Shown here in pieces: positions 1,657-59,896 of a stretch of 64,000 nucleotides of DNA; positions within the stretch are counted from its first letter, which is position 1; every line of letters begins with the position of its first letter. Both the position numbers and the translations under genes were made by a program. The DNA is from Sulfolobales archaeon. Its GTDB lineage: Archaea; Thermoproteota; Thermoprotei_A; Sulfolobales; AG1. Under the pieces are notes generated by a model, which saw only the letters and a list, made by a program, of their open reading frames with translations, ran no database searches and was not told where the DNA came from. The stretch covers positions 256,001-320,000 of the forward strand of contig JAWBYA010000002.1 in assembly GCA_038867615.1 (NCBI GenBank), written 5' to 3'.

Positions 1657-3519
1657 TTGAGGCTACTGGCAATAGCTCTTCTCCTCCTCATACTCTCAGC
1701 GACACAGCTATCATTGCTAAGCGCTAGTACTAATACCAATACTACTAATTGTGTCAGAATAGATGTCCCAGCAGTGGAGGGTCAGAGTGGGAAGGGCAGT
1801 GTTGTTAGCGTAGCTGTATGTATAAACCCAGGCGGTAATAGCCTGAGGATCTATGGTACAGATAAGATCGAGGCCGACACGCTCATATCGATCATAACAG
1901 CATACATCATAGCCCAGCTACTATCAAACAAACCCCCAAGCAGCTATGATATAGATATCAGCTTCGAGAAAAACGTACAAGACGTATCAGGTCCATCTGC
2001 AGGAGCTATTATGACGTTAGCACTCTACAGCCTGCTAAACAACAGTGAATACAACGGCCTGTCTGGCACAGGTGCTATAAATCTAGACGGCAGTATAGAG
2101 GCTGTTGGCGGTATACCGCAGAAGCTCTCCGCTCTAAGAACTTCTGGGCATAAAGAGGTATTCTTACCAATAGCTAATTATATTCAGTACAGACAGCTAA
2201 TAGAATCACAATTCAGGGATCTAAAAGTGCTCCCGGTAAGCAGTATTGTAGATCTTCTCAATACGCCGCCGCCCCGCTGGTCCCTAGAGGCTGGGGAGGA
2301 GTATGTAATATATGTTATATCAAACGTATCAAGAGATCATGAAGCCGTTATGAAGGATCTTCTGGAAAGGCTTTCGAACATTTATATAAGCAGGGTATCT
2401 GATACAGGTTCCACGGAATATAGATTAGTAATGAGTATAGTGGATAAGGTTAGAAGAAACCCCCCGAGCAATGGGTATGCTTTGATAAACCTATACTACC
2501 TATCACTGGTTCAGCTTATCCAAGCTATAGTGGATAGAGATCTCAACGGGTATGGTAGGATCCTGATCCAGCGGGCTGTTGAGGAGTATAACAAATCGAT
2601 AGACAGGCTTGCCACGGTCTTCTCAGATATACCCAGATCTATGGATCTCGACAGGTTCCTACTATACCTACTGATCTTTGAGAGAGCTGTAAACCTGGCC
2701 AGCTATGATGGTGTGGTTAAGGCTTACACAAGTAGCGGTGATACAGGATCTATAGCCAGGGTAGCGGGCACGCTATATGGAAGAGCCCTCTCAATAGATT
2801 ACTGGCTAGATGTGCTGGGTAACATGACGCATAGCACAGGAGCAACTGTGGAACTGGATAGTGCCTATGGTGTGTCTAGAAACATCCTCCGGATTCTCGG
2901 TGTCTCCAGAATATCTGATACTGCTGTTTCGAACCTAACTAAGATCATAGGCCCTAGAGTAGATCTTGCTGCCCTAGAGACCCTGAACACCGTTTATACT
3001 CTATACTCGTATCTACAGAACTACTCATACACAGTGAGAGGGTCGACATTATCCCAGATTATTAGTCGGGGAGCGGGGACTGGGGCGAGCTCCAACGCCT
3101 TAGATCAGCTGAAAACAAGCGGCTATATAACAAACATGCTCGGAATCATGCATAGCGGCATGGCTAGGAGCATCTATAGCTTCCCACTGTGGGTTCTCAA
3201 CAACACAGATCCACAGTCACAAGATACAGGAATCCTTGTCAGCTCCTTACTATCAACAAGCGCCTCCGCTCTGTCTCTCAACATGCTCTACATGATCCTC
3301 TCTAAAAGGGTTAGCACACCACTCAGTCTAGAGCTTAGCGGTGAGGCTAAGAACGTTCTACAAGGCCCCGCAGAAAGGAGATATCCCGCTGATATCCCAA
3401 TAATAGAGCTGGAGAGACTATCACAACTCCTAACCTTAGCATCTATAGCCATCTCTACTATAACATTATTAATATACATTGCTTTATCCAGAAGCGGTAA
3501 ACCAAACCCAAAGCCGTAG
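1657..3519 (+). CDS. Secreted, membrane-anchored S16 (Lon C-domain) serine protease
   Basis: Signal peptide, SGPSAG catalytic Ser, VGGIPQK Lys, C-terminal TM helix; the stop codon lies inside repeat copy A. Confidence 0.8.
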   Translation: MRLLAIALLLLILSATQLSLLSASTNTNTTNCVRIDVPAVEGQSGKGSVVSVAVCINPGGNSLRIYGTDKIEADTLISIITAYIIAQLLSNKPPSSYDIDISFEKNVQDVSGPSAGAIMTLALYSLLNNSEYNGLSGTGAINLDGSIEAVGGIPQKLSALRTSGHKEVFLPIANYIQYRQLIESQFRDLKVLPVSSIVDLLNTPPPRWSLEAGEEYVIYVISNVSRDHEAVMKDLLERLSNIYISRVSDTGSTEYRLVMSIVDKVRRNPPSNGYALINLYYLSLVQLIQAIVDRDLNGYGRILIQRAVEEYNKSIDRLATVFSDIPRSMDLDRFLLYLLIFERAVNLASYDGVVKAYTSSGDTGSIARVAGTLYGRALSIDYWLDVLGNMTHSTGATVELDSAYGVSRNILRILGVSRISDTAVSNLTKIIGPRVDLAALETLNTVYTLYSYLQNYSYTVRGSTLSQIISRGAGTGASSNALDQLKTSGYITNMLGIMHSGMARSIYSFPLWVLNNTDPQSQDTGILVSSLLSTSASALSLNMLYMILSKRVSTPLSLELSGEAKNVLQGPAERRYPADIPIIELERLSQLLTLASIAISTITLLIYIALSRSGKPNPKP

Positions 3520-3770
3520 CCAGCTGTTTCGGATTTCATGAGGGTTTATATGGATTGATATTAAACCCGTAGTTCTGCAATAATGGAACATTATATAAGC
3601 CCTGTTATTCTATGGGATGCCGCCCAGCAATGAGGGTGGCTATAAAGACCCAAGTGGGCGGGTTAAATAAAAACCAGGATGTGGGGGTTTCCCCACAGCA
3701 TTGAGCTGAGGCCGAGGAAGCCATGGGAAGAGCGGTTGATATCAAAAATCAACCGCAATGAAGCCCGAAC
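3511..3770 (+). mobile_element. Dispersed non-autonomous element, copy A (internally deleted)
   Basis: Starts AAGCCGTAGCCAGCTG, ends ATGAAGCCCGAAC; first ~190 bp nearly identical to 59549-59740; hairpins GGGTTTA/TAAACCC, TGTGGGG/CCCCACA, GCGGTTGAT/ATCAACCGC. Confidence 0.85.
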
Positions 3771-4040
3771 CCCGCATAACCCCTAACAAACCTACATAGC
3801 CTTTCATTTCGATCATCACTGAGTGCTGAAAAAGCTCGCCTCCAGGTAAATCTTTCCCAAGAGTTATCAGGACCCAGAGATCTATTGATCACGAATCCTG
3901 ACTGCTTGAAAGTATGTATCATTAAAGACAGTCTCGTGGTTGGAAGCAAGTGATCATAAACCTTAACTAAATCCCCGCTTGACTCCAAGGCCCCATATGG
4001 GGTGATATTAGTCCCCTTGGGATCTTGGTAATGGTGAAGC

Positions 4041-5363
4041 ATGCTAACCTATGAGCATATGATAAAGGATCCTGTCCATGGATACATAGGGATCACTCGG
4101 GCGGAGAAATGCATAATAGATACTGGGGCTTTTCAGAGGCTTAGGAGAACGTTACAGCTGCCAACCTCTGTCTATGTATATCCAGGGGCTGTGCACACCA
4201 GGTTTGCCCATAGCATTGGCGCTATGCATATAGCCAGCGCGTTTGGCGAGAATATAGCGCAAAGGCTAGGGCTTGTGGGTAGGGATGAGGGTTCCAGGCT
4301 TATCCAGTTCCTCAGACTTGCTCTACTCCTACACGATATAGGCCACGGCCCTTTCTCCCACAGCTTTGAGGAGACGATCCTATACCCAATGGGGGTTAAT
4401 CACGAGATAGTGGGCTCCAGGATCATTGAAAGCAATGACGAGATAGCCTCATGCATAGAGGAGAACAAGGATCTAGGATTTACACCAAAAGATCTTTCAA
4501 GAGCATTGCTAGCCGTTGGAAGCGAGGACTGGCCAGTGCTGGGATACAGTGGTGTTGATCAGGAGATGGAGAAGAGCCTCTTCTATGTGCTTAAAGGGCC
4601 CTTCGCCGCGGATCTCCTAGACTATCTGATCAGGGACTCATACTACACAGGAGCTGGATACGGCTCGGGGATAGATTGGGAGAGGATAGCTAGAAGCACC
4701 ATCCCGCTCCACAGGAGGCTAGGAATACTGGATAAGGCTGTCGATGCATACGAACATGTCCTCATAGCCAGGTTCCACATGTTTGCCACGGTGTATTATC
4801 ATAAGACTACGAGGGCTGTTGAGCAGCTTGTATCGAGACTCCTTGAGGAGAGTAAAAGCTATATTGATTATAGGGAGATGGTGAACAACCCCTCCAGATA
4901 TGTTGAGCTAGACGACACCTATATACTTGGAAACCCCTCTATAAGGGATCTCGAGCCATGCAGAATGCTTCTAAACAGAAAAATACCCTACACTGTTGTT
5001 GAGGAGAAAAGGCTACAGATACCTAGGAGAAACCCCCTCATGATGCTAGCCCTCGATAGGGGTTTTCTTAACAAGCTCCTGCTAGAAAAGCTTGGGAGCA
5101 ACTATAGCGGGGTTGTCTATATAGACACACCACGCCTACCCCTCAACCCGATGCTCAGGGATGATGAGGTTCTAGTGATCTCCGGGGATAGGCGTGTGAT
5201 CAAGGGATTCGAGGAGATGAGCTTTGGAACACTCTCCCACAGTGTCGCTATAGTTAGGCTCTATATGGATAAGAGGCATCTCGATAAGAGGGAGCAGGCG
5301 GTAAAGACATTTAGAGAGATCATCGAGACAAGCTCTATGGAGACCCTCAGGTCTTTCTACTAA
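4041..5363 (+). CDS. HD-domain phosphohydrolase (dNTP triphosphohydrolase-like, COG1078)
   Basis: DPVHG, FQRLRR, HTRFAHSIG, LLHDIGHGPFSH, DLLDYLIRD, VYYHK. Confidence 0.9.
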   Translation: MLTYEHMIKDPVHGYIGITRAEKCIIDTGAFQRLRRTLQLPTSVYVYPGAVHTRFAHSIGAMHIASAFGENIAQRLGLVGRDEGSRLIQFLRLALLLHDIGHGPFSHSFEETILYPMGVNHEIVGSRIIESNDEIASCIEENKDLGFTPKDLSRALLAVGSEDWPVLGYSGVDQEMEKSLFYVLKGPFAADLLDYLIRDSYYTGAGYGSGIDWERIARSTIPLHRRLGILDKAVDAYEHVLIARFHMFATVYYHKTTRAVEQLVSRLLEESKSYIDYREMVNNPSRYVELDDTYILGNPSIRDLEPCRMLLNRKIPYTVVEEKRLQIPRRNPLMMLALDRGFLNKLLLEKLGSNYSGVVYIDTPRLPLNPMLRDDEVLVISGDRRVIKGFEEMSFGTLSHSVAIVRLYMDKRHLDKREQAVKTFREIIETSSMETLRSFY

Positions 5364-5382
5364 GGGTTCTGATGAGATATCG

Positions 5383-8222
<2,840 letters not shown>

Positions 8223-8315
8223 TCAGAATACTATCACGCTATTAACTTATTAAACTAGTCTTTTTCCTTTGCTAAGAGGAAATGCTAAGATATTTACCCC
8301 TTCACGCTTACTTCT

Positions 8316-10319
8316 TTGGTGTGTTTCTTGGTTGTGCGTGATGTTAAAAAGATCCTTGTTGTCGGTGCTGGCACAATGGGGCACGGTATAGCTGAGGTAG
8401 CCGCCATAGCTGGTTATAATGTGACTCTCGTTGACATATCTAAAGAGATCCTTGATAGGGCGCTAGAGAGGATCAGATGGAGCCTCTCGAAACTGAGGGA
8501 GAAGGGGAGCATTAGGGAGGATGTCGAGACGATAATGTCTAGAATAAAAACCTCGCTAGATCTAGAGGAGTCTGCTAGAGAAGCTGATTTCGTGATAGAA
8601 GCAGCACCTGAAAATATAGAGCTGAAGAAACAGATATTCTCAAGACTTGATAGGAGTGCAAGGCCGGGCGTGATCCTTGCTACGAATACCTCCTCACTAC
8701 CAATAGGAGAGATAGCCTCGGCGACATCGAGGCCTGAGATGGTTATTGGTATGCACTTCTTCAACCCACCACCATTAATGCCCCTAGTTGAGATTGTCAG
8801 AGGCCCCCAGACCTCTGATGAAACACTCAAGATCACCGTAGAGATTGCTAAGAAGATGGGCAAGGAGATCGTGATCGTTAACAAGGACATCCCAGGCTTT
8901 ATCGTTAACAGGCTCCTCTCAAGACTCATAGAGCAAGCATGCTACATGGTTGAGGAGGAGGGCTTCTCGATCCAGGCTATAGATAGTGCCCTAAGATACA
9001 GGGCTGGGCTTCCAATGGGTGTTTTCGAGCTTGTCGACTTCACAGGAATAGATGTTGTTGCCTTTATATTCAGCGAGATGAGTGCTAGAGGGTTTAAAGC
9101 CAGGGTATGTAGATCTATCGCTGAGAAGCTAGAGAAGAAAGAACTTGGAATGAAGAGCGGTAAGGGTTTCTACACATATCAAGCACCAGGTGTATATTCA
9201 AGACCATCTATACCGAGGGAGGAGGGTGAGAGGGTTGATATCATTGGGCTCTTCGCACCAATGGTTAACGAGGCTGCATTCCTGCTAGAGAATGGATATG
9301 TAGACTCGCCAGGAACCATCGATACTGCTGTGAAGCTAGGCCTCGGCTACCCACGCGGTGTACTTGAAATGGCTGACCAGTGGGGTGTCGATGCTGTTGT
9401 TGAAAGGCTTAGAGCAATAAGCTCGAAAGAATCTATGAAGCATAATGCTCCTACAGGGTTGCTACTAAAAATGGTCTCCGAGAACAAACTAGGTGTAAAA
9501 ACGGGAAGCGGTTTCTACACATACGCCGGCGTTGAGGAGAAGAGGCTGAAGACGATCACGGTGAGGAAGGAGAACAGGATTGCGTGGATAGTGCTCAGCA
9601 GACCTGAGAGGCTTAACGCTATATCCCCCGAGATGATAGACGAGATCTCTAGAACTATAGAAGAGCTAGAAACGGATGAAAGTGTGAGGGTTATAGTGAT
9701 AACTGGGAGCGGGAGGGCCTTCTCAGCCGGTGCCGATATAACCGCGTTCACAAGCGCGAATCCCGTGAATGCATATATATACTCTAAAAGATTCCAGGAG
9801 GCGCTCAACAAGATCGAGACTACCCCGAAACCGGTGATAGCAGCTATCAATGGCTACGCACTCGGCGGAGGGCTTGAGCTGGCTATGGCATGTGATCTCA
9901 GAATAGCTTCCGAGAACGCTGTCTTAGGGCAGCCGGAGATAAACCTTGGCCTCATACCAGGGGCTGGCGGGACACAGAGGCTCACGAGAATTGTTGGTGT
10001 TGGAAGGGCTAAGGAGATAGTAATGCTTGGCGACCTGATACCTGCGAAGGAGGCTGAGAGGATCGGTCTTGTTAATAGGGTAGTGCCCCACAACATGCTT
10101 GAGAACGAGGTGAGGGCCTTAGCATCTAAGCTTGCTGAGAAGCCCCCAATAGCCATCATGATGAGCAAGGCTGCTATACATCTTGGAGGCGAGGCCCCAC
10201 TAGACTCTGGACTAGCCCTTGAGAGAGCATTGTTCTCGATCCTGTTCTCTACGGAGGATCTCATAGAGGGTGTGTCAGCCTTCCTCCAGAAAAGAAAGCC
10301 AGAGTTCAAGGGGAAGTAG
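8316..10319 (+). CDS. Bifunctional 3-hydroxyacyl-CoA dehydrogenase / enoyl-CoA hydratase
   Basis: GAGTMG Rossmann motif, NTSS, GMHFFNP; C-terminal crotonase FSAGADI, GGGLELA, PEI. Confidence 0.93.
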   Translation: MVCFLVVRDVKKILVVGAGTMGHGIAEVAAIAGYNVTLVDISKEILDRALERIRWSLSKLREKGSIREDVETIMSRIKTSLDLEESAREADFVIEAAPENIELKKQIFSRLDRSARPGVILATNTSSLPIGEIASATSRPEMVIGMHFFNPPPLMPLVEIVRGPQTSDETLKITVEIAKKMGKEIVIVNKDIPGFIVNRLLSRLIEQACYMVEEEGFSIQAIDSALRYRAGLPMGVFELVDFTGIDVVAFIFSEMSARGFKARVCRSIAEKLEKKELGMKSGKGFYTYQAPGVYSRPSIPREEGERVDIIGLFAPMVNEAAFLLENGYVDSPGTIDTAVKLGLGYPRGVLEMADQWGVDAVVERLRAISSKESMKHNAPTGLLLKMVSENKLGVKTGSGFYTYAGVEEKRLKTITVRKENRIAWIVLSRPERLNAISPEMIDEISRTIEELETDESVRVIVITGSGRAFSAGADITAFTSANPVNAYIYSKRFQEALNKIETTPKPVIAAINGYALGGGLELAMACDLRIASENAVLGQPEINLGLIPGAGGTQRLTRIVGVGRAKEIVMLGDLIPAKEAERIGLVNRVVPHNMLENEVRALASKLAEKPPIAIMMSKAAIHLGGEAPLDSGLALERALFSILFSTEDLIEGVSAFLQKRKPEFKGK

Positions 10320-11124: not shown

Positions 11125-11256
11125 CGATGTGGATCTTGATACTGGTTGGATATAGATCAGTCTGTCCCTAAAGGCTACTCACCACAAGAATCTCTCTACC
11201 ATTGGATAAAAGAACCTATTTAATTATACCTCTAGCTATTATGGTGTGGAATACAC

Positions 11257-12609: not shown

Positions 12610-12618
12610 GTATAACCT

Positions 12619-13554: not shown

Positions 13555-13555
13555 A

Positions 13556-14983: not shown

Positions 14984-15004
14984 CCCTACTCCCTGGTGCT
15001 TGGG

Positions 15005-15289: not shown

Positions 15290-15298
15290 CTACACCAC

Positions 15299-15457: not shown

Positions 15458-15458
15458 A

Positions 15459-15830: not shown

Positions 15831-15835
15831 ACCAC

Positions 15836-16640: not shown

Positions 16641-16680
16641 TTATAATATTCCTCGAGAATAATATATCAAGGATATAGTA

Positions 16681-20984: not shown

Positions 20985-21270
20985 GCTCGGGCTTCATAGA
21001 GGTTAACATTGTTTGACGCTATCTACCCAGCCCTTGACTTCTGTCAAAGCAGCCCAACCCACGATCCTTCTATATCAATATGTAGGGGAAACCCTGCACT
21101 CCGGCTTTCTACCCAGCCTGCTTGGGTCTTTACATATATTTATATTGTTGATGGATTAGCTGTAAAGCATATCAAGATCTTATTTATAGGCAGGTCTAGG
21201 AGGATCTAGCAGATAGCCTCTATGATCATTTATAAATATTAGTGAAAAACGAAACAGCCTGCCATGGCTT
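20985..21270 (-). mobile_element. Dispersed element, degenerate copy F
   Basis: Minus strand begins AAGCCATGGCAGGCTGTTTCGTTTTTCA, contains AAGACCCAAG...GGGTTTCCCC and GTGGGTTGGG, ends ATGAAGCCCGAGC. Confidence 0.7.
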
Positions 21271-22424: not shown

Positions 22425-22661
22425 CGCCGGCAACTGATCATGGTTTACTGTTTACAAGAAACGATATTAAGTTCGTAGCTCTGCAAGAACATAGGCTCTA
22501 TGTATTTATGGTAGAGCTGGGGCGAGTTTTTCCACAGCATTGAGTCAGCGAGTATCTATGAAGAGAGGCTGTGGGTTGGGGTTTCTCTGGACGAGTGGAG
22601 GCCGAGGAAGACGAGGAAAAGCGGTTGGTACAAAAATACCAAACCGCAATGAAGCTCGATC
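22425..22661 (+). mobile_element. Dispersed element, copy B (left end decayed)
   Basis: CCACAGCATTGAGTCAGCGAGTATCTATGAAGAGAGGCTGTGGGTTGGGG nearly identical to the reverse complement of copy C; ends ATGAAGCTCGATC. Confidence 0.8.
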
Positions 22662-22708
22662 CTAGCAACTGATCCCCCATATTAACCATTGATGGGTACA
22701 AATGGGTA

Positions 22709-30761: not shown

Positions 30762-33071
30762 TTAAGCATATATCGGTGGCGTCATAACCTGCTTTGGAAG
30801 TCTCTGCTTAAACCTCTCTCTCCAACCCTCATAGAATTTGATCATGTCGTCAGAGAGCGTTGGCCTGATCTTTGACATAGCATGGATGAAATGCCTCATA
30901 TAAACCCTAGAGGCTGAAAGATCCTCTCTCAATGCATAGAGAGCAGCCTCCCTAACCATTGCAGCGATATCGGCTCCCGTATAGCCTTCGGCGGATCTAG
31001 CTATATACTCCAGATCTACATCCTCCGCTAATGGCATCTTCCTAGTATGAACCTTAAGGATCTCTAGCCTTGATTTATAGTCAGGTGGTGGGACATATAT
31101 AATCTTATCAAGCCTCCCAGGTCTGAGAAGAGCTGGGTCTATTAGATCAGGCCTGTTAGTAGCACCTATAACCACGACGTTGTTGAGCTTCTCAATACCA
31201 TCTATCTCTGTTAATAGCTGGCTAACAATCCTCTCAGTAACCCTTGTCCCCTCATCGATAGAGCCTCTATGAGGTACTATAGAGTCTATCTCATCGAAAA
31301 GGATCACCGTGGGGGCATAGATCCTCGCCTTCCTAAAGATCTCCCTTATAGCTTTCTCACTCTCACCAACCCATTTGCTAAGGATCTCCGGTCCTCTCAC
31401 CGATATGAAGTTAGCACCGCTCTCAGTAGCAACAGCCTTTGCTAATAGCGTTTTACCAACACCTGGAGGCCCGTAGAGAAGAATACCCTTAGGAGGCTCA
31501 ATACCAAGCCTCCTGAAAGCGTCTGGGTATTTTAGAGGCCATTCAACAGCCTCCCTCAGCTCCTGCTTAACCTCCTCTAACCCTCCTATATCGCTCCACC
31601 TAACCTCCGGGATCTCTACATAGACCTCTCTGAAGCCGCTGGGTATTATCTCTTTGAAAGCCTGCATGAAGTCCTGCTGTGTCACATACATAGACTCAAG
31701 GATCTCAGGATCTATTGTATCGCTCTGCCAATCTATCTTAGGCAGGTATCTCCTCAGCGCGTGGAGCGCTGCTTCTTTAACAAGTGCTGCTAGATCTGCC
31801 CCGGTATAGCCATGGGTTATCTCCGCAATCTTCCTGAGATCTACATCCTCGGCTAGAGGCATGTTCCTCGTATGTATTGTGAGTATCTCAAACCTGCCCT
31901 GCTTATCTGGAAGAGGTATCTCTATCTCCCTATCAAACCTGCCAGGCCTCCTTAGAGCTGGATCGACTGCGTGAGGCCTATTAGTAGCCCCAATAACGAT
32001 CACATCCCCTCTACCCTTAAGCCCATCCATAAGTGTTAGGAGCTGTGCCACAACCCTCCTCTCAACCTCACCCATAACCTCGTCCCTCTTCGGGGCTATC
32101 GCGTCTATCTCGTCTATGAATATTATTGCTGGCGCGTTCTTCTGAGCCTCCTCGAAGATCTCTCTCAACCTCTGCTCGCTCTCACCATAGAACTTGCTCA
32201 TAATCTCTGGACCATTTATAGCTATGAAGTGGGCGTTAGCCTCATTAGCTATAGCCTTTGCTAATAGCGTTTTACCAACACCTGGAGGCCCGTAGAGAAG
32301 AATACCCTTAGGAGGCTCAATACCAAGCCTCCTGAAGATCTCTGGGTGCTTTAGGGGTAGCTCGACAAGCTCCCTCACCTTCCCTATAATATTGCCCAAA
32401 CCACCTATATCATCGTAGGTAACCCTTGCAACTTTAATATTGCTTACAGGTCTATCGAGTATCTGTAACACTGTATCCTTTGTTATTATAACAACACCAG
32501 GAGGTCTCGTCTGGATCACTACGAAGGGCATTGGCTGTCCAAGCAGGGGGACATAGACTATATCGCCCTCAACAACAGGGGTCTCCTCAAGCCTCTTCTT
32601 AACATAGTTAACAAAGCTGGGCTCTATGCTTGTGAATGTAACATTACTCTGCGCAGGACCGATCTTGACTGCCTGTGCGTTTTTGGGAGAGGCCCTCCTA
32701 ATAATAACCCTATCCCCGATCGAGATCCCGGCGTTCTTTCTAACAACAGCATCCATCCTTATAATATCCGGCTCATCCTCACCATAGCTAGGCCACGCTA
32801 TAGCTGCTGTCTTCTTCCTCCCCTCGATCTCCACTACCTCTCCAGGGTTTATCCCTAGCTCTTTCATCACACTAATATCGATCTTAACCTTGATCTTGCT
32901 ATTATCCTTAACCTTAAGCTCAGCAACCCTTAGATAGGCCTCCTTCCTTCTCCTAACACCTGGACCCTGGCTACCAGCCTCTCCAGAGCTCCCCTCGGGA
33001 GGAGGATCCGGTGATCCGGGTCCAGGCGTCTTTTCAACTCCGCTCATGCTACCACTTCTCCACTCTCTCAT
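30762..33071 (-). CDS. cdc48: CDC48/VCP AAA+ ATPase, paralog 2
   Basis: Two AAA modules; C-terminal IYA HbYX motif; Gly/Pro/Ser-rich N-terminal extension. Confidence 0.95.
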
Positions 33072-35033: not shown

Positions 35034-35080
35034 TTGACAGATTCAGCATATAATGCGGGGCTAATGAGTGAAAAATAACT

Positions 35081-35131
35081 ATGGGAAGAGCGGTTGATAT
35101 CAAGCAATATCAATGGCTATGAAGCCCGAAC
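35081..35131 (+). repeat. Isolated right-end fragment of the dispersed element
   Basis: ATGGGAAGAGCGGTTGATATCAA...ATGAAGCCCGAAC matches the right end of copy A. Confidence 0.8.
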
Positions 35132-35200
35132 CCCGTGATAGATTGGGATAGCCTAATATAATGACTGAGGATTAAATGTAGCGGGACGAGAAACACGTAG

Positions 35201-37372: not shown

Positions 37373-37436
37373 ACCCTGGACTAATATAGCCTCTGTATTC
37401 ACAACACTATATAGACTCGACCTCTAGATCTAAGGT

Positions 37437-37687
37437 GTTCGGGCTTCATAGCAGTTGATTTTTATACCAACCGCTTTTCCTCGTCTCCCTCGGCCCCCAC
37501 CCATCCAGAGAAACCCCAACCCACAGCCTCTCTTCATAGATACTCGCTGACTCATTGCTGTGGGGAAACCCCACATCCCAGCTCAACCGTAAAATAACAG
37601 AACTTATACTATGTTCCCACAGAACCAAGAGCTTAACACCAAATCCATACAAACCATCATGAAAACCGAAACAGCTGGTCACGGCTT
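37437..37687 (-). mobile_element. Dispersed element, copy C
   Basis: Minus strand AAGCCGTGACCAGCTGTTTCGG...GATGTGGGGTTTCCCCACAGC...ATGAAGCCCGAAC. Confidence 0.85.
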
Positions 37688-44309: not shown

Positions 44310-44383
<74 letters not shown>

Positions 44384-44390
44384 TCTCTAG

Positions 44391-44675
44391 GTTCAGGCTT
44401 CATAACAGTTGTCTCTTTTTAATCAACTGGTTTTCCTTGGCTTCACCGGCCCCAGGGATCCTTTCATTGGAGCCCTTATCACTGGCCTCCACCCATCCAG
44501 AGAAACCACAAACCCACAGCCCCCCTTCATAGCTTTGCTCTGGTTCATTGCTGTGGGGAAACCCCCATCTCAGCTCAACCGTAAAATAACAGAACTTATA
44601 CTATGTTCCACAGAGACAAACCCGATATAAACCCCTATAAACCCTCATGAAACGCGAAACAGCTGGCTCTGGCTT
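44391..44675 (-). mobile_element. Dispersed element, copy D (7 nt after the tRNA)
   Basis: Minus strand AAGCCAGAGCCAGCTGTTTCG...GGGGTTTCCCCACAGCAATGAACCAGAGC...ATGAAGCCTGAAC. Confidence 0.85.
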
Positions 44676-47277: not shown

Positions 47278-47359
47278 AATTGCACCAAACCATATGTATT
47301 ATCGTGTGCAGGGTATTAAGGAGAAAAAAGTTTTCTTTTTATAATATGTGGATCTTTCA

Positions 47360-50326: not shown

Positions 50327-50517
50327 CTAAAACACACCATCATCACTCACTACTCTAAGGGGTTAATATATTTGAATAACCACAACATAATTTTCTAGGA
50401 GAACTATAGAGCCAAAAATATATATATTTCCTATATTATTAAAATAGATCCTGGCTCTCCAGATCCTGAGGATAACCTTATATAAGGTTGCTATGATAGT
50501 TAGTTGGTGCACATCGC

Positions 50518-52176
50518 ATGGCCAAGTATGATGCTATAGTCATAGGTGCTGGACATAACGGGCTTGTGGCTGCATGCAATCTCGCAATGAGAGGGCTTAG
50601 AGTGGCTGTCTTTGAGAGAAATAGGTTTCTTGGGGGCATGGCCTCTTCGCCTGAGTTATGGCCTGGGTTTGCTGTCCCTATAGGCGCTTACGTGATAAGC
50701 CTTTTCAGGAGAGAGATCGCCGAGGAGCTTGGATTATTCGAGAGAGGTTTGAGAATAATACCAAAAGATCCCGGGTTGACTGTCTTTCTGGAGGGGGGAA
50801 AGGTTCTAAGCATATGGAGCGATTCTAAAAAGACCGCTAAGGAGATCTCGAGGATCTCTGAGAGAGACGCTGCTCAGTATGCTAGATGGAGCAAGTTCTG
50901 GGGATTTGTGGGAGCACTCCTAGATATTATATATATGAGTAAACCCCTCAGCCTTGAAGATACCCTGGAGCTTGCCAAGAAGGCTGTGAGTATTGCTAAG
51001 CATGGCGGAGAGGAGATCTCTAGATATGTTAACGACATCTCCTGGATTATTAGCGCACCAGCATCGAAGATCCTTGACGAGTATTTCGAGAGCGAGGAGG
51101 TTAAAGCAGCCCTCGTCGAGGACGCCCTAGTAGGTGAGATGATCTCTCCTAGCACCCCGGGATCCTCGATAGTCATGGCCCACCACTATATGGGGAACAT
51201 AACAGGGAATAGGGGTCAGTGGGGCTATGTAGAGGGTGGTATGGGATCCCTCTCAAAGATCCTTGCTAAGAGATGCTCAGAGCTTGGTGTCGAGATCCAT
51301 CTCGGAGTAGAGGTCGAGAGAATCGTTGTCACTAATGCTGGGTGGGTTAGGGGCGTTATAGCCGGTGGAAAGTTCTATGAATCCTGGATGGTTCTAAGCA
51401 GTGCTGATGTTAGGACAACAATGCTTAAGCTACTTGACCCCGAGGCTCCTGTTGATAAGGATCTTATTAGAAGGATTAAGAGCCTTAGGAGTGTCGGAGC
51501 CTCGTCAAAGATAGTTGTTGCCACAAGGAATCTTCCAAAACTTGTTGATAAATACTCGGGCTACGAGGATCTGGCATATAGATCCTCCGCAATAACGATC
51601 CCATCGATAGACTATGTCGAGAAAGCATACTCAGAAGCATTGATGGAGGGGATGAGCAGGAACCCCTGGGTCTCGGTAAACGTGCAGAGCTATTTAGATA
51701 GAACAGTAGCCCCAGAAGGATGGCACATAGCATCACTCTTTGTGCAATACACAAGTAGAAAGAGTCCTGGAAACTGGGGTGAGGAGGATAGAGAGAAGCT
51801 CGCTGAGAGAGTATTCACGGTGCTTGAGAACTACTATAGCGGCTTTAGGAAGAGCGCTGAGAAGATAATGATAATAACACCAAGGGATATCGAGGAAATG
51901 TTCCAAACACCAGGAGGAAATATCTTCCACATAAGCATGTCCCCAGACCAGCTATGGAGCAATAGACCAGATAGAGAGCTATCAAACTACAGAACACCAG
52001 TAAAAGGGCTCTACCTATGCGGCGCGGATACACACCCAGGAGGAGGGGTTAGCGGAGTACCAGGATACCTATGCTCAACAGAAGCCCTAATAGATGCCGG
52101 GATTGTTAGAAAGAAATTCAAATACCACGAAATACTCAGACTTGTGAAGGGAATCCTGTCGCTTAGAAGTTCGTGA
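50518..52176 (+). CDS. Phytoene-dehydrogenase-like NAD(P)/FAD oxidoreductase (COG1233)
   Basis: IGAGHNGL, GGMG, TPRDIE, GNIFH, LYLCGADTHPGGGVSG. Confidence 0.9.
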   Translation: MAKYDAIVIGAGHNGLVAACNLAMRGLRVAVFERNRFLGGMASSPELWPGFAVPIGAYVISLFRREIAEELGLFERGLRIIPKDPGLTVFLEGGKVLSIWSDSKKTAKEISRISERDAAQYARWSKFWGFVGALLDIIYMSKPLSLEDTLELAKKAVSIAKHGGEEISRYVNDISWIISAPASKILDEYFESEEVKAALVEDALVGEMISPSTPGSSIVMAHHYMGNITGNRGQWGYVEGGMGSLSKILAKRCSELGVEIHLGVEVERIVVTNAGWVRGVIAGGKFYESWMVLSSADVRTTMLKLLDPEAPVDKDLIRRIKSLRSVGASSKIVVATRNLPKLVDKYSGYEDLAYRSSAITIPSIDYVEKAYSEALMEGMSRNPWVSVNVQSYLDRTVAPEGWHIASLFVQYTSRKSPGNWGEEDREKLAERVFTVLENYYSGFRKSAEKIMIITPRDIEEMFQTPGGNIFHISMSPDQLWSNRPDRELSNYRTPVKGLYLCGADTHPGGGVSGVPGYLCSTEALIDAGIVRKKFKYHEILRLVKGILSLRSS

Positions 52177-52268
52177 AGAACAACAAAAACCCCACTAAGT
52201 TTTAAACCGCTTTTCTTGCTAGCGGAAGTCTCCCTATCGATATAGATAATATAGATACCCCGCCCTTT

Positions 52269-53315
52269 CTATCCGAACCACTTGTCGAGACCACGTGCAG
52301 CTGACGCTCTAGAGATAGCCTTGGAGAGCCTTTCTAGATTGTTCTCCACCCTTTCTCTAGAAAATTCATACTCCTCTACTAGTAGTTCTATTATCTTCTC
52401 GCGGTCAGGGGCTCTCCACTCGATACGAGGGATCTCTGATATAGGTGGGTTTAGAAAGAATTTTTTGATCTCCATAGGGTCTACGGGGAATCTTGCTCCC
52501 GGGAGCACCTTGAGAACCCTATCTATGCTCCCATAGCTCTTGACCAAGCTGTATGCCTTTTTAGGACCTATCCCCTCAACACCGTCTGGATTGAAATCCG
52601 TGCCCACCAGTATCGCTATGTCGATCAACTGTTCCCTCGTTATCTCTAAGGTTTTCATCAGAAGGTTAAGATCTATCACCTCAGGCTTGATCTCGACGTA
52701 GATCTCTTTTCCTGGAAGCTTCCTCTTACCACTCACAGCAAGGTTTCTGACAAGCCTCGGGCTACCAAATAATAGGGAATCGTAGTCCTGGCTCGCAGTA
52801 GCCCAGGCTATCCCCTTCATAGCCATATATGCCGCCTGGGCCTCTCCCTCAGACGGTGCCTGGACCCATGGTATCCCCATATAGTTTAGAAGCTTCTTAG
52901 AGGATTCAACCATATCGTTGGATAGCCTTGACGTGGCTTGTGCGTATTTCCTCATCTCTTCCTCATCCCCTTTTTCTCTAGCTATTCTAAGCCTCTCCTC
53001 AGCCTTCTGCTTAGCCATGCTCCTCCTAGCTATCTCTGCGGCCTTGATCTCGGGAGGCTTTCCGTCAAACACGTATACAGGCTTTATACCAGCCTCGACG
53101 AGATTTATTGTGCGGTAAAATAAGCCTGATAGATGGCTAGTAACCCTCCCCTTGCTATCCATGAGAGGAGTCCCATCAGGCTGTCTTATCGCTGCTAGGA
53201 ACTGGTAGAGTGCGTTATAAGCATCGATAGCTATGATCTTGCCGGAAAGCTCCCTAAGGTCGTTGATCTGCCTTATAGCTTTCTCGGGTATTAGATCTTT
53301 TAGATCTACGCCCAT
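52269..53315 (-). CDS. fen: Flap endonuclease 1
   Basis: MGVDL, DAYNALYQF, VFDG, EGEAQ, SQDYD, GTDF, C-terminal PIP-like LDKWF. Confidence 0.97.
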   Translation of the reverse strand: MGVDLKDLIPEKAIRQINDLRELSGKIIAIDAYNALYQFLAAIRQPDGTPLMDSKGRVTSHLSGLFYRTINLVEAGIKPVYVFDGKPPEIKAAEIARRSMAKQKAEERLRIAREKGDEEEMRKYAQATSRLSNDMVESSKKLLNYMGIPWVQAPSEGEAQAAYMAMKGIAWATASQDYDSLLFGSPRLVRNLAVSGKRKLPGKEIYVEIKPEVIDLNLLMKTLEITREQLIDIAILVGTDFNPDGVEGIGPKKAYSLVKSYGSIDRVLKVLPGARFPVDPMEIKKFFLNPPISEIPRIEWRAPDREKIIELLVEEYEFSRERVENNLERLSKAISRASAARGLDKWFG

Positions 53316-53606
53316 GTTCCATCACTTTCTATACAATCCTTGTAACACATCTATTGTAGACTGCTCCTCAGTCAACATTGGCGAAGAAGTATTGAGAGCC
53401 CCATTTATAATCATGATATATCTATCCAGACCACTATCACTATATGTTGGATATTCTCTAAAGATCCCCACAGAACCCATCCCACTGATAAATTGCCGAG
53501 AGAAATATATAATAATTATATCAGAGACTACCAACATGGCCCCCAATACACCTCCCAGTAAAACCCCTCTATTATGATCTATGACAGCAATAATTCATAA
53601 TAAGAT

Positions 53607-54971
53607 CTAGCTTCTTGTTTGTCCTATGGCTATGCTGTAGAGCCTATCCCTAACCTCTAGGGCTTTTCTATATGCTTCTTCAAGCCTCTTACTCACAGTC
53701 TCCCAATTCTCTGGCTTCTCTATCCCTACAAGCTTCTTTATCTTTGTATATGGCGATTCTCTATGATACGTCTTTAACTCCTCAACCTTGCCCTCAGGAT
53801 CTCTATACAGAACTTTTGGTTCGCTTATAACCTCACCAATAATCCTACTCTCTATACCTCTGCTCTTTAAAAGCCTCTCTATATCTTCTAGAATATCCTT
53901 CTCCGCTATGATGGCTATGCTGTCCAGCGAGATACCAAGAGGGTCTATATCCAGTTCTCTGAGCATCCTAAGCACCTCACTATCTATGAGGCTATAGATC
54001 TCCTCTAGATCTATTAAGAAACCGACCCCTGAGGATCTCGAGATCTCGTTAAGATCCCCCCTGATCCCCCCGTTGGTTATGTCAAACATGGCGTGGATCT
54101 TATCCACAACATCGCTTTCAATAATAGTCCTCAGGGCCCCAAGCGTATTGAAATTCAGGGTTCTTAGAACCACTTCAGGCTTACCGCCATATATTGCTGT
54201 TGTAGCCACAGTCCCGCCCCCAGCACCCATTGTCATGAGTATCTTATCACCAGGACGGGCATACCTCCTAGCCTTAGGTCTATTTTTAGATACACCAACA
54301 CACATCACGGTCCCAACAACCCTTGTCCCTATAACCATGTCGCCCCCTATCCTCAGGGTAGATCCACCTACTATCGGCGCCCCCAGGTATTTCGAGACAG
54401 CCGCGACGCCCGCTTCTAGGTCGAGTAGGTATGAGGGATCGCCGTCATCCCCAATCCTAAGATCTACGGCGAAAGACACAGGCACCGCCCCCTTAACCAT
54501 AACATCCCTAGCAGCAGCCCTAGCAGCATGGAACCCTGCTATGAGTGGGAAGTAGGAGAGCCTGCTATGTATGCCATCAACAGCAACCACGATCCACATA
54601 TCACCTATTCTAACCCACCCAGCATCGTCAAGATCCATCGCAGAACCCTCACTACTCCCCCAGCTGGCAACGCCCGCTAGGAGCCTGTGGAAAAAGAAAT
54701 CGCCAGAGCCTCTTGAGCCTATTCCAACAATACCCGCGGATACCCCGGAATCGCTGGGGCAGAGTATCCTCCTCAGTATAGGATCTATGTCACCACCACA
54801 AGCCTTGAGGGACGATAGTGTCTCATCATATACAGTTAATGCGTACTTCGAAGCCGTATCCCACTTTAGATCCTTGTAAAAGACAATCTCGTCAACAACC
54901 CTCCACAGGATCTCCTCCTTAGAGAGACCCCTAGATATCCCCTTCCTAACTATACCCTCGAGATCCGCCAT
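53607..54971 (-). CDS. AIR-synthase (PurM-like) related protein of unknown function
   Basis: GSRGSGDF, LDDAG, DGIHSRLS, GGSTLRIGGD, DITNGGIRGD. Confidence 0.85.
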   Translation of the reverse strand: MADLEGIVRKGISRGLSKEEILWRVVDEIVFYKDLKWDTASKYALTVYDETLSSLKACGGDIDPILRRILCPSDSGVSAGIVGIGSRGSGDFFFHRLLAGVASWGSSEGSAMDLDDAGWVRIGDMWIVVAVDGIHSRLSYFPLIAGFHAARAAARDVMVKGAVPVSFAVDLRIGDDGDPSYLLDLEAGVAAVSKYLGAPIVGGSTLRIGGDMVIGTRVVGTVMCVGVSKNRPKARRYARPGDKILMTMGAGGGTVATTAIYGGKPEVVLRTLNFNTLGALRTIIESDVVDKIHAMFDITNGGIRGDLNEISRSSGVGFLIDLEEIYSLIDSEVLRMLRELDIDPLGISLDSIAIIAEKDILEDIERLLKSRGIESRIIGEVISEPKVLYRDPEGKVEELKTYHRESPYTKIKKLVGIEKPENWETVSKRLEEAYRKALEVRDRLYSIAIGQTRS

Positions 54972-55045
54972 AAAGCCCCAAAAATAGTTATGCTAGGGCT
55001 CTATAAGGGGCTGGAGTACGAGAGTCTTTCGTAATAGATCAGGGC

Positions 55046-57121
55046 TTATCTGATATTCTGGGATTTAACATCATCGAATCTTCTCAATGCTTCTTCAGGA
55101 TCCTGGGTCGGTAGTGCGCATATAGTGCCATAACATATATAATATACAGGTTTTTCTCCCCACACTTTTCCTCTATATAGCTCCCTCAGAACCTTTGACC
55201 TCGGATTAGGCGCGCTCGCAGAGGTGACTCCTACCCAGTATCTCTTCCATAGATTCTTTATGAATAGCTCGTACCCCTGATCCTCTGAAACCAATGTTAC
55301 GGCAACCTGGTAGGATGGGTTCGCTATTGTATCTATATATGTTATCATTGCTGCGTATTGCTGCGGAACCTGGTCTATGTATCTAGATGATCTCCTAAAG
55401 ATCTCTAGGGCTTTCTCTCTATATGAGTTATCGCCGCTATAGAGGTAAAGCTTCGAATACAGATCTATTGTCGCTGAGGCACCACTCGGTATAACGTTAT
55501 CTACAAATGTTGATATAGCAATACTCCTCGAGCCAGGAGCGTCTGGGTTCTCGATAATCACGCCATCTTTTATGAATACCTTCTCGATGCTCTGCGAGAT
55601 CTCTACCGCTATTTCTAGGTATTTCTCGTCATTGGTAGCCATATATAGATCAACACATGCAGAGCCATATAGCGAGGTGTCGCTTAGATACCCCCACTTA
55701 CTAGCCTCTCCCTCATAGTATACATGGGCCACCCTATCACCGATCCACATTTTGCTCTTAATAACATCGGCAGCCTTTCTAGCCGCATCTAGGTATCTCT
55801 GATCCCATGTTACTAGATAGAGTCTCGCAAGCGCCATAATAGCCAGGGAATTCCAGTCTGCTAGGTGTTTCTCATCGATATGGGGTTTTGGCTTCCTCGA
55901 TAGCCTGTACTCGTACAGCTTTGCCTCGATCTCGCTATAGATCCTGAGGGCTTCGTCGTATGGTTTTTTAAGGAATCTTGCAAGATCCATAGGGCTCATA
56001 GCCCTCACTGGATGCATCCTCTCATGTATGAGGGTTGATTGGGACCAGCCATATATATTCTTAGCGATCTCTGCCATATCCTTTCCAAGGGCTTCTATAA
56101 GCTCCTCCTCGCTCCATAGATATGCTCCCCCCTCAACACCACCAGCCTCAGCATCTAGGGATGAGTAGAAAAGCCCCTCCCTACCCAACATGTTTTCGAA
56201 CATGAAGTCAGCAGTCTTTCTGGCTGTTACTATATATTCTAGAGATCCTGTCGCTCTATAGAGATCCACAAGGATCCTTGCGATCTGCGCGTTATCGTAG
56301 AGCATCTTCTCGAAGTGAGGGATCCTCCAACCCCTATCAACGGTATATCTGAAGAAACCCCCGGCCAGGTGATCCTGAAGCCCTAGCCTAACCATGCTGT
56401 TAGCCGTTCTCACAACCATCCTCAGTGCTGTGTCATCACCCCTCCTGAACCAGTATCTCAGGAGAAGGTCTAGGTAGGGTATCATAGGGAACTTAGACGA
56501 GAACCCAAAGCCTCCGAAGACAGGATCGAAGGACGCTGATATCTCTGTAAACGCCTTCTCAAATATGTCGTTAATATTTATGCCCTTATTAACCTCCCGC
56601 GCCGAGAGATAGCTGATCACAGCATTCTGGATCTCTTCTGCTGCTGCTAAAACCCTATCCCTATCACCCACCCATAGATCTTTGATCGCGTTGAGTATCT
56701 CAACCAGCCTATCTCTAGGAAAATACGTCCCTGCATAGAACACCCTGAGATCCGGTGTCAGGAAAGCGGTTAGAGGCCAGCCGCCTGAGCCTGTTATGGC
56801 TATTGTTGCCGTCATGTATATCTCATCAACATCCGGCATCTCCTCACGATCAACCTTTATTGGTACGAAATACGTGTTGAGTATCGATGCTACTTCAGGG
56901 TCTAGGAAGCTCTCCCTATGCATTACATGGCACCAATGGCACGACGAGTATCCTATGGATAGGAATATCGGTTTATTCTCAGCCATAGCTTTCTGGAAAG
57001 CCTCCTCTCCCCATTCATACCAATCTATAGGATCGCAGGCGTGGAGCCTGAGATACCTACTCTTGGAGTTAACAAGCCTGTTAGGCTTTCCACACATATG
57101 ATCACTGTAGCCCTGAAGCAT
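55046..57121 (-). CDS. Thioredoxin-domain protein YyaL/SPATA20 (DUF255)
   Basis: [42 protein letters not shown]. Confidence 0.93.
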
Positions 57122-57225
57122 ACCCTATCTCATCAATACCCGTTTGGGGGTTTTTATCCGTAGTGGTATAGTGCGTCTCTGACCTTTTATTAGCCCTGAA
57201 AACCAAGTATATCTAGGGATCTATC

Positions 57226-58023
57226 ATGGATGGTACTCAATTAGCCTTAATAATAGCCATACTGATCATAGTTCTGCCTTTCCTAGCAGCCTCTGTAAAG
57301 GTGGTGAGGGAGTATGAGAGGGCAGTGATCTTCAGGCTTGGGAGGCTTAAGGGGGCAGCAGGCCCAGGGATCTTCTTCATAATACCGATTGTCGATAAGC
57401 TCTTCAAAGTAGATCTCAGGATAAACACGATAGATTTTCCGAAACAAAACGTCATTACAAAGGATAATGTGAGCATTCTCATGGATGCTGTTGTGTATTA
57501 CAGGGTAGAGGATCCAGTTAAGGCTATTGTGAAGGTTGCTAACTATAACTATGCTGTTGTCCAGCTTGCAATGACAACTCTCAGGGATGTTACCGGGACT
57601 GTGGAGCTGGATGAGCTTCTAACACACAGAGAAGAGGTTAGTAAGAGGATACAGAAAATAGTGGACGATATAACAGAACCCTGGGGTATAAAGATAGTTG
57701 CAGTAACAATCAAGGATATCGTGCTTCCAGAGGAACTGGTTAGGGCTATATCTATGCAGGCCCAGGCCGAGAGGATTAGGAGGGCGAGGGTAATCGAGGC
57801 CGAGGGTGAAAGACAAGCTGCATCGATACTAGCAGAGGCGGCAAGCATGTATGCCAACAGCCCAATAGCTATAAGGCTTAGAGAGCTCCAAACCCTCGTC
57901 GAGGTTGCTAAGGAGAAGAACATGGTATTGATAGCTGATACTATTAGATCCGATCTCTCGGGTCTGGGGTTCCAGTTAGGAGCCGCAGCTTTCAGTAGAG
58001 GACAGCAAGGGACAAACAAATGA
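57226..58023 (+). CDS. Slipin/stomatin (SPFH) protein
   Basis: EYERAVIFRLGR, ITKDNV, TTLR, PWG, QAQAER. Confidence 0.95.
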   Translation: MDGTQLALIIAILIIVLPFLAASVKVVREYERAVIFRLGRLKGAAGPGIFFIIPIVDKLFKVDLRINTIDFPKQNVITKDNVSILMDAVVYYRVEDPVKAIVKVANYNYAVVQLAMTTLRDVTGTVELDELLTHREEVSKRIQKIVDDITEPWGIKIVAVTIKDIVLPEELVRAISMQAQAERIRRARVIEAEGERQAASILAEAASMYANSPIAIRLRELQTLVEVAKEKNMVLIADTIRSDLSGLGFQLGAAAFSRGQQGTNK

Positions 58024-59411
58024 ACGTAGCCTTTAGATCTAGAATGGTTCTTCCTATAGCAACAGGCCTCACTATCCTCTCCATAGTCCTGCTAATTATT
58101 CCAACGATCCAAGCGATGTTTCTGCCACCTTCACTACTCCATGGCCGGGAGTCTAGTAGCAGTATTATGCTTCAACAACAGGTCGAGATCGGAGAGGCTA
58201 TTGTTGCCGATATAAGAGGCACTGTGGATCAGGGGATGGGTAGGTATATAAAGAGCCTCATAGATAGGGCGCATAACGAGAGAGCCGCTCTCATAATCGA
58301 CGTTCAATCTCCAGGAGGTTTTCTAGGAGATACCATGGATATAGCTGATATGATATTTAACGCAAAGATCCCTATAATTGGCTATGCATCGGGAGATAGC
58401 TTCAGCGGGGCAACATTAATACTGATCCCAACCCACATACTTGCTGTCAACCCATCATCCCTGGTAGGGGATGCCCAGCCTGTCACAATAGATCAGACGG
58501 GCAGGCTTGTACCAATAACAGAGCCTAAGATCATCAACCCCCTTGTCAAGAAATTCGTGGACTATGCTGAGGCGCGTGGTAGGAATACCACCCTGGTTAA
58601 GATGTTCATACTAAACGCAACCGTAGTAAATGGCGATGAAGCTGTTAAGCTAGGGCTTGCAGACCTTACAGCCAGGAGCGTTAGCGAGCTGGTTGAAAAG
58701 CTGAGGGGTAAGATAATAACCATCAATGGGGTTGAATATAGACTCAATATATATCAATTAACACCTGCTGGTGAGTGCCTGAGCTGCAGGCTACTCAGCT
58801 TCCTCTCAGACCCCATGGTGGCTGGTGTATTCATAACAATAGGTGTGTTTAGCGCTATCTTCGCCATATCCTCTGGGCATCTAATAGCACTGCCATTCTC
58901 ACTCATATTCATACTCCTAGGACTGCTCGGCTCAGGCCTCCAAGTGGATCTCTTAACAATAGCACTGATACTGCTCGGAATCACATTCATAGCGGCAGGA
59001 ATAGCTATAGGTCATGCCGATGGCGGTATACTTATGACAGCTGGGATAGCTATGGCAGCGATCGGGACAGCCCTTCTACCGGTAACGGGGAGAGGAATAC
59101 TGATAGCTGGTTCGAGCAACATAATGGGCACGATCTATGGTTTCTCACTCGGAATCGGTATAGGTTCTGCCATAATAGGTGGGCTCATAGCATGGCAGCT
59201 AGTGCTACTCAGGAAGAAAAAATCCGAGATCTTCGAGATCGTTGGAAAAGAGGGTGTTGCCAGAGACGATATAGAACCGGGTAAAGAAGGATTTGTACTA
59301 GTTGAGGGCGAACTATGGCGAGCAGTCTCAGATGAGAAAATAAATGCTGGCGAAACCGTAATAGTTATTGATAAAAAAGGCTTTATACTCAAGGTAAAGA
59401 AGAAACAGTAG
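58020..59411 (+). CDS. NfeD / stomatin operon partner protease
   Basis: ClpP-like SPGG, TM region, C-terminal OB fold GFVLVEGELWRA. Confidence 0.9.
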   Translation: MNVAFRSRMVLPIATGLTILSIVLLIIPTIQAMFLPPSLLHGRESSSSIMLQQQVEIGEAIVADIRGTVDQGMGRYIKSLIDRAHNERAALIIDVQSPGGFLGDTMDIADMIFNAKIPIIGYASGDSFSGATLILIPTHILAVNPSSLVGDAQPVTIDQTGRLVPITEPKIINPLVKKFVDYAEARGRNTTLVKMFILNATVVNGDEAVKLGLADLTARSVSELVEKLRGKIITINGVEYRLNIYQLTPAGECLSCRLLSFLSDPMVAGVFITIGVFSAIFAISSGHLIALPFSLIFILLGLLGSGLQVDLLTIALILLGITFIAAGIAIGHADGGILMTAGIAMAAIGTALLPVTGRGILIAGSSNIMGTIYGFSLGIGIGSAIIGGLIAWQLVLLRKKKSEIFEIVGKEGVARDDIEPGKEGFVLVEGELWRAVSDEKINAGETVIVIDKKGFILKVKKKQ

Positions 59412-59548
59412 TCAGATGATCTCTTCACAGACAATAATAACGCTCCAATGAACCTGTGATTCACAACCATGTTTAGGGAAAGAAAAACAGGATAGAAATA
59501 CTAATAAACAGTAGATGTTCAAGGCTTCATAGCCACAAGCACTCCTCG

Positions 59549-59896
59549 AAGCCGTAGCCAGCTGCTTCGAGTTTCATGATGGTTTATAAGGATTGATATT
59601 AAACCCGTAGTTCTGCAATAATGGAACATTATATAAGCCCTGTTATTCTATGGGGATGCCCGCCCAACAATGAGGGTGGCTATAAAGACCCAAGTGGGCG
59701 GGTTAAATAAAAACCAGGATGTGGGGGTTTCCCCACAGCAATGAACCAGAGCAATGCAATGAAGGGGAGCTGTGGGTCGGGGTCACCCCGAACGGGTGGA
59801 GGCCAAGGATATGGGCCCCAATGAAAGGAGCCCTGAGGCCTATGAAGCCAAGGGAAGAGCAGTTGGTATAAAAATCAACCGCAATGAAGCCCGAAC
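59549..59896 (+). mobile_element. Dispersed element, copy E (longest, 348 bp)
   Basis: AAGCCGTAGCCAGCTG...TTATATAAG...GATGTGGGGGTTTCCCCACAGC...TCGGGGTCACCCCGA...ATGAAGCCCGAAC. Confidence 0.88.

Follow-up and report, generated by a model that had tools for sequence, protein, structure and literature searches.

The 64,000-nt stretch analysed here (the window) covers positions C2:256001-320000 of the genome assembly of a Sulfolobales archaeon (G000), which comprises 2.22 Mb in 28 contigs with 46% G+C and is 94% complete. The window carries a dispersed family of short, structured, gene-less elements. These copies are internal-deletion derivatives of a tnpB element that keep a promoter TATA and a 3' structured region overlapping the tnpB 3' end, as a preliminary description made from the window alone had proposed. 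[quoted passage not shown]

Copies of the element in the window

The six copies originally listed (A to F) and both accompanying fragments are present. A profile (nhmmer) built from 17 full-length copies of the genome matches all six and the fragment at 35.1 kb: A at 3513-3773 (+), F at 20985-21041 and 21081-21268 (-), B at 22427-22500 and 22524-22662 (+), the fragment at 35077-35134 (+), C at 37434-37685 (-), D at 44390-44673 (-) and E at 59551-59899 (+). It adds an unlisted seventh copy, X, a degenerate left-end part at 59897-60050 (-) adjoining E. With up to 2 mismatches allowed, the left motif CCAGCTGTTTCG occurs 9 times where 2.93 occurrences are expected, a count that 1 of 100 shuffles reaches. 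The right motif ATGAAGCCCGAAC also occurs 9 times, for an expectation of 1.02, and none of 100 shuffles attains this number. Repeat finding matched A to E at 95-98% and, on the opposite strand, paired C, D and B with E.

Copy E (59554-59899, +) is a full-length miniature of 346 bp that directly follows its target GCC (59551-59553). It contains a TATA-like box, TTATATAAG (59629-59637, +), which is homologous to the box upstream of the parent tnpB described below. A hairpin, CCCGCCCA...TGGGCGGG (59659-59702, +), stems from the zinc-ribbon coding part of tnpB. The main conserved structured region, the putative omega-RNA scaffold (59714-59899, +), corresponds to the last ~85 tnpB codons and includes the right-end hairpin (59859-59882, +). 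If transcripts read through the end of the element, the flank at 59900-59919 (+) would serve as the guide.

The copies fall into subtypes according to the profile positions that they retain. Subtype I is about 350 bp long and resembles E, subtype II (2-200 and 287-353) resembles A, subtype III spans 2-175 and 255-353, and subtype IV (2-100 and 165-353) resembles C and D. Copy A (3516-3773, +; 258 bp, subtype II) follows its target GCC at 3513-3515, and its would-be guide starts at 3774. It retains the left end, TATA and zinc-ribbon hairpin and is without ~86 nt of the main scaffold. Copy C (37434-37682, -; 249 bp, subtype IV) combines the left end and TATA with the full 3' scaffold; its target GCC lies, as the reverse complement, at 37683-37685. 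Copy D (44388-44670, -; subtype IV), with its target GCC at 44671-44673 (reverse complement), has its right end 4 nt from a tRNA-Met gene (44310-44383, +). Copy F (20985-21268, -) is old and degenerate, and copy B (22427-22662, +) is degenerate and subtype-IV-like. The solo right-end fragment (35077-35134, +) consists of the right-end hairpin and the terminal GAACCCC.

Copy X (59900-60050, -) is the left-end part of an older degenerate copy in the opposite orientation to E. By eye, the second fragment, at 59517-59533, appears to be the right-end tip of X (tip at 59517-59553), with E nested in X.

Derivation from tnpB and conserved folding

A blastn search of the genome with copy E returned 117 pieces, 19 of them at least 330 bp long and all bounded by query positions 50-400. 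It also located the full-length parent that the preliminary description had expected, with both ends, at C1:11134-12700. Here the left end of E (query 50-100) and its right half (query 214-400) flank a 457-aa TnpB. A search for the Pfam zinc ribbon (PF07282) identified five genes in the genome. Two of them (C1:12309 and C1:51361) are directly followed by a match to the right half of E, and the left end of E lies 1.2-1.4 kb further upstream. In the second of these parents (C1:50094-51743) tnpB is broken into two frames. None of the five PF07282 matches falls inside the window, in agreement with the earlier statement that it holds no tnpA or tnpB. Neither a DDE-transposase parent nor target-site duplications (TSDs) were found.

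Aligned to both parents, E consists of the left ~55 nt, the pre-tnpB TATA region, the zinc-ribbon hairpin and the 3'-terminal ~190 nt. The sequence AACATTATATAAG in the TATA region is common to E and the parents. The TATA-like box noted earlier in A and E has its homologue in the promoter region of the parental tnpB. The intact parental frame, C1:11373-12746 (L001:565-1938), ends in ...WGFPHSNEPEEIYEGELWVGVTLNGWRPRIWAPMIGALRPMKPREERLISFDINRYEARTP... and contains the tail peptide that had been tentatively likened to a TnpB C-terminus. In a TBLASTN comparison, window positions 59713-59868 match residues 380-431 of the parent TnpB with 84.6% identity. The tail of E corresponds to this C-terminal part of TnpB; it is not stop-free as described, since the open reading frame (ORF) at 59719-59871 has a stop at 59869-59871. 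Within the element itself, tnpB meets no stop codon: the right end is read as R-Y-E-A-R-T-P and the frame ends in the flank (L001:1892-1938; L002:1883-1887; L005). Because the frame runs into the flank, the last residues of TnpB differ by insertion site.

Genome-wide, nhmmer found 134 pieces, which merge into 103 loci. These comprise the two tnpB parents, 54 two-ended miniatures, 20 right-end-only and 18 left-end-only copies, and 9 internal pieces. The full scaffold is present in 39 of the 54 two-ended miniatures, and 28 of these 39 have the TATA (by pattern).

To assess folding, we aligned 24 sequences of miniatures and of the 3' ends of tnpB genes; they come from G000, from its genus and from more remote records. 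An 8-helix structure over the 3' ~190 nt is paired in 88.0% of 938 cells. Changes on both sides occur in 17 of its 42 pairs, which 0 of 500 shuffles reach. Controls in which the partners slide by 1-3 columns give 31.9-50.6% pairing and 3-14 double-change pairs. The 3' ~190 nt thus form a conserved fold. Covariation is strongest in a hairpin closed by GGCC/GGCC and in the right-end hairpin, where 5 of 10 pairs show double changes, bearing out the covariation first noticed there. The putative RNA of E folds with z = -2.36.

The zinc-ribbon hairpin is retained in four lineages with different stem sequences, and the minimum-energy fold closes the stem in 11 of 14 sequences. Among these are miniatures of another genus (L053 and L054), which have different deletion junctions and retain both modules, the main scaffold as well as the zinc-ribbon hairpin. 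The hairpin with the best covariation (window positions 59795-59845, with counterparts in other copies) lies between AAUGAUA and CUGA inside a GGCC/GGCC stem. Read by eye, GGCC-AAUGAUA...CUGA-GGCC resembles a box C/D-like K-turn; CUGA is not kept in L053-type sequences. Searches of Rfam gave no credible match for copy E and the parent element at E values up to 10, and in the window a tRNA alone reached the gathering score.

Ends, target site and transposon family

The window is collinear with a contig of the relative G003 at ~93% identity, which allowed a site-by-site comparison. Three clean empty sites were obtained: that of copy A in the relative G002 (L015), that of copy C in G003, and that of a G003 copy which has no counterpart at window position 61251/61252. 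At the site of copy C, G003 has 2 nt against 259 nt in the window. The sequence is ...(A)GCC|flank where the site is empty and ...GCC|GTAGCC......GAACCCC|flank where it is filled. All three show insertion after (A)GCC and confirm the claimed lack of a TSD. They also revise the left end. The AAGCC previously assigned to it is not part of the element: GCC is target DNA, retained in all three empty sites, and the element begins with GTAGCC. The right end extends 4 nt beyond its earlier placement, to GAACCCC, by alignment and by comparison of 75 right ends. A different flank follows GAACCCC at every copy, as originally noted.

Of 70 left flanks, 63 have G, 62 have C and 59 have C at the successive positions of the trinucleotide that adjoins the element, and the base ahead of it is G in only 2 of the 70. 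The 75 right flanks show no conservation. CC is found at both junctions (left ...GCC|GTAG, right ...ACCCC|), and the boundary at the empty site of element A is ambiguous by exactly this shared CC. The best explanation is insertion by recombination at a CC core, directly 3' of 5'-HGCC-3', without duplication. HGCC would then be the transposon-associated motif (TAM). The two ends share an imperfect subterminal inverted repeat of 36 nt (75%).

The family occurs in all five other genomes of the genus and in 10 of the 31 genomes searched (G000 included). It was active around the divergence of these relatives, since F and B are common to G003 and the D site is occupied in both, while the insertions of A and C differ. 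The D site holds a subtype-IV copy in the window and a full-length subtype-I copy in G003. As the subtype-IV junction is common to other copies, this looks like conversion between dispersed copies rather than local deletion. E, too, is absent from the matching locus of G003, but this locus is rearranged, so that no clean empty site for E is available: 59898-60136 is inverted and 59503-59897 is missing. We also inspected DNA contigs of four metagenome runs, in which contigs end at repeats. The sole usable result comes from run X9, where a variant has 59502 joined to 60136 on opposite strands, as G003 does.

To identify the transposase, we collected relatives of the parent TnpB from public genomes. 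In locus L038, the family left end is followed by a 197-aa protein (tnpA), tnpB and the family right end. This TnpA consists of an N-terminal MerR-type helix-turn-helix (HTH) (HTH_17/MerR, residues 2-47) and a resolvase catalytic domain (PF00239, 92.8 bits). The protein has matches in 20 of 31 relatives, the best at 81% (G027) and 78% (G030) identity. At the loci of these best matches (L065 and L066), tnpA again adjoins tnpB between the family ends (nhmmer). The tnpB genes of L038, L065 and L066 are 60-71% identical to the parent. As all three autonomous relatives with the family ends carry a serine-recombinase tnpA, the family is of the IS607 type. This type fits the CC at both junctions, the lack of a TSD, the subterminal inverted repeat and an insignificant left-end hairpin, in keeping with the account of IS607 in preprint 10.1101/2023.11.20.567912.

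The preliminary description had instead placed the elements with IS200/IS605. Under that reading, the copies would be palindrome-associated transposable elements (PATEs), moved in single-stranded form by a Y1 (HUH) TnpA through its recognition of subterminal hairpins. Such a mechanism would be suited by TSD-free insertion 3' of a short motif and by the strong right-end hairpin (z = -4.9 for the parent DNA fold), and 4 of 31 relatives searched have Y1 TnpA (PF01797) matches. G000 itself has none. The left-end hairpin, claimed alongside the right one, folds no better than shuffles (z = -0.32, -1.20 and 0.04), and the subterminal inverted repeat suits a recombinase that binds double strands. Together with the serine recombinase in each of the autonomous relatives, this makes movement by a Y1 transposase highly improbable, and we do not retain the IS200/IS605 assignment. 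The sole intact Y1 gene in the genus (G004), considered as a partner, lies in an element without the family ends.

The sole serine recombinase of G000 (C23:6616-7053, in the frame C23:6595-7206) was also rejected as a partner: it carries the catalytic domain at its N-terminus and lacks a MerR-type HTH, and its contig is without family ends. This 203-aa resolvase/invertase-type protein (L006:1480-2091) is encoded near a contig end with small unrelated ORFs alongside, and may be left over from a plasmid or virus. Another IS607-type tnpA, distinct from that of the family (215 aa; L036:390-1037, -), was seen head-to-head with a truncated family tnpA in a metagenome-assembled genome of the Desulfurococcaceae. 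Elsewhere in the window, at 6162-7621 and 30918-32377, two pairs of ~300-nt direct repeats (families D1 and D2) are 64-79% alike and ~24 kb apart; they resemble duplicated genes.

A possible role as guide RNAs in trans

The IS607 transposon, with a serine-recombinase tnpA and tnpB, survives in G000 only in tnpB-only form, in an intact and a broken copy. Deletions within the element removed nearly all of tnpB and left the ~55-nt left end, the promoter TATA, the zinc-ribbon hairpin and the 3' ~190 nt, in which the tnpB 3' end and the right end make up the putative omega-RNA scaffold. We infer transcription, TnpB loading and cleavage along the following lines. Transcription from the TATA through the scaffold into the flank would provide each copy with its own guide. 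The TnpB encoded by the frame at C1:11373-12746 would bind these RNAs in trans. After scarless excision of a copy by the serine TnpA, the TnpB-RNA complex would recognise HGCC and the sequence matching the guide at the empty site, and the copy would be restored through recombination with the sister chromosome. Such a return to the site is a model shown for bacterial IS605 and IS607 (10.1101/2023.03.14.532601; 10.1101/2023.11.20.567912).

The parent TnpB matches PF07282 with 52 bits (cut-off 26.3), its PDB matches are Cas12f and TnpB chains, and RuvC-I (AWDSNE) and RuvC-II (ILEDL) motifs can be read by eye. Its clade carries the motif D-R-Q-x-L-A-S-x-N-I in place of the typical TnpB motif D-R-D-x-N-A-A-x-N-I (L001, L005, L036-L039, L065, L066). 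The D-R-Q clade sits in mobile elements linked to tnpA. PMC10691335 describes RuvC-III rearrangements that are conserved, in some cases almost confined to archaea and associated with serine recombinases, and takes this conservation to imply activity.

A number of observations weigh against the guide-RNA interpretation. The score of the parent TnpB against the NCBIfam model guided_TnpB (NF040570) is 63.9 bits (E = 1.6e-17), below the cut-off of 100. The Gln aligns with the catalytic RuvC-III Asp of two solved Cas12f/TnpB-like chains; all 13 clade members read D-R-Q, while all five other, usual-motif TnpBs in the collected loci have Asp. The nuclease activity of the cognate TnpB is uncertain because of this substitution. 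The genome has only one intact cognate tnpB, its next nearest TnpB being 39% identical. A search of this 94%-complete assembly with the L038 tnpA gave no match, and for lack of a cognate tnpA, excision and with it the need for homing may have ceased. Dispersed copies decay about neutrally: in the 35 G000 copies with a full right half, single-sided stem changes comprise 123 that keep and 125 that break the pair. Double changes in the stems of these copies are kept in 30 and broken in 12 cases, and C>T substitutions (107) are about as frequent as G>A (95). Part of the scaffold is missing from 15 of the 54 two-ended copies, and since the scaffold-deficient subtypes II and III have multiplied, the scaffold is not needed for spread. 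Finally, 31 of 75 would-be guides have a second 15-nt match, which equals chance (24-37 of 75 for random 20-mers in five draws).

These observations raise the alternative that the miniatures are inert, the scaffold being kept only through recent deletion or a cis requirement of the right end, and the RNA being unused by TnpB. The near-neutral stem decay, the multiplication of subtypes II and III, the lack of guide matches beyond chance and the absence of tnpA from the genome all speak for it. Yet most two-ended copies keep the whole ~190-nt scaffold, though right ends of 67-100 nt are enough for the subtypes that spread. Among the 17 full-length copies, no 15-nt block is better conserved than that of the TATA (0.96 identity). 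In another genus, deletions that arose independently left both modules in place, and the hairpin of those miniatures, now non-coding, shows compensatory stem changes. We regard inert miniatures as unlikely, if a serious competitor. The Gln at the canonical RuvC-III Asp throughout the clade, and the many promoter-bearing scaffolds for one intact tnpB, could also point to domestication by the host, with the copies acting as guide- or regulatory-RNA genes and a nuclease-altered TnpB serving RNA-guided DNA binding instead of homing. Such a role is hard to reconcile with insertion polymorphism between close relatives, with guides that are simply flanks whose second targets do not exceed chance, with the decay of the copies, and with the presence of the same TnpB clade in autonomous transposons with tnpA; we consider it extremely improbable.

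Guide RNAs supplied in trans from IS607 derivatives thus remain our preferred interpretation. In a more specific and more tentative form, the about 40 promoter-bearing miniatures may constitute a dispersed library of trans guide RNAs for one intact, HGCC-targeting TnpB of an archaeal D-R-Q clade linked to serine recombinases, shaped independently in two genera to promoter, hairpin and scaffold. If this is true, the miniatures parasitise the homing function of the nuclease and not merely the transposase. This TnpB clade from thermophiles, in which a putative C-rich TAM goes with an atypical RuvC-III, is of possible interest for the mining of compact editors.

Among the closest described systems is the IS607 IStron of Clostridium botulinum (preprint 10.1101/2023.11.20.567912), for which a core-dinucleotide rule without TSD is described and omega-RNA supplied in trans works for an IS607 TnpB. 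As in that element, a serine TnpA with an N-terminal HTH precedes tnpB, insertion leaves no TSD, a core dinucleotide is found at the target motif and the right end, and the omega-RNA scaffold, putative in our case, overlaps the tnpB 3' end. The core is CC in HGCC here and GG in TGGG there, and our family has no intron. It further differs in its archaeal, hyperthermophile-like hosts, a tnpB frame that runs through the right end into the flank, and the RuvC-III D-R-Q; in G000, it is represented by tnpB-only and gene-less forms alone.

PATEs of Haloquadratum walsbyi and Geobacillus stearothermophilus are gene-less as well and, in haloarchaea, arose by core deletion of tnpB elements (PMC3119063, 10.1101/2023.03.14.532601). 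They are stated to 'often encode omega-RNAs' on which TnpB made elsewhere acts in trans (10.1101/2023.03.14.532601), and stand-alone omega-RNAs are reported to function in trans (PMC10691335). Our copies share with PATEs the core deletion and the lack of a TSD, and some PATEs, too, keep the C-terminal coding region. PATEs, as described there, belong to IS200/IS605, with Y1 TnpA and palindromes at both ends, whereas the autonomous relatives of our family are of the IS607 type and the right hairpin alone is supported. Lack of a TSD, a hairpin and a tnpB gene thus need not mean IS605, an easy misassignment that is corrected here.

In Halobacterium salinarum, sotRNAs arise from the 3' end of IS1341-type tnpB, and the PATE-derived VNG_R0052, a fusion of left and right ends, is expressed (PMC4615843); expression was demonstrated in that case and is predicted in ours. 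Staphylothermus marinus has ~260-nt MITEs related to its one-ORF IS607 elements (PMC2678158), for which that paper offers no interpretation in terms of RNA or TnpB. The likeness extends to a Desulfurococcaceae-type archaeon, mostly one-ORF IS607 elements, and a multi-copy ~260-nt repeat resembling the region upstream of the ORFs. The DNA of E has no similarity in the complete small genomes among the 31 relatives, a set that perhaps does not include S. marinus. Gene-less forms derived from IS605 and IS607 have been described before, as have stand-alone omega-RNAs with a function in trans, and the family is no new kind of system. It provides a clean archaeal case of a gene-less IS607 derivative, with defined ends, empty sites, a target motif, a covarying scaffold and a promoter that has been kept.

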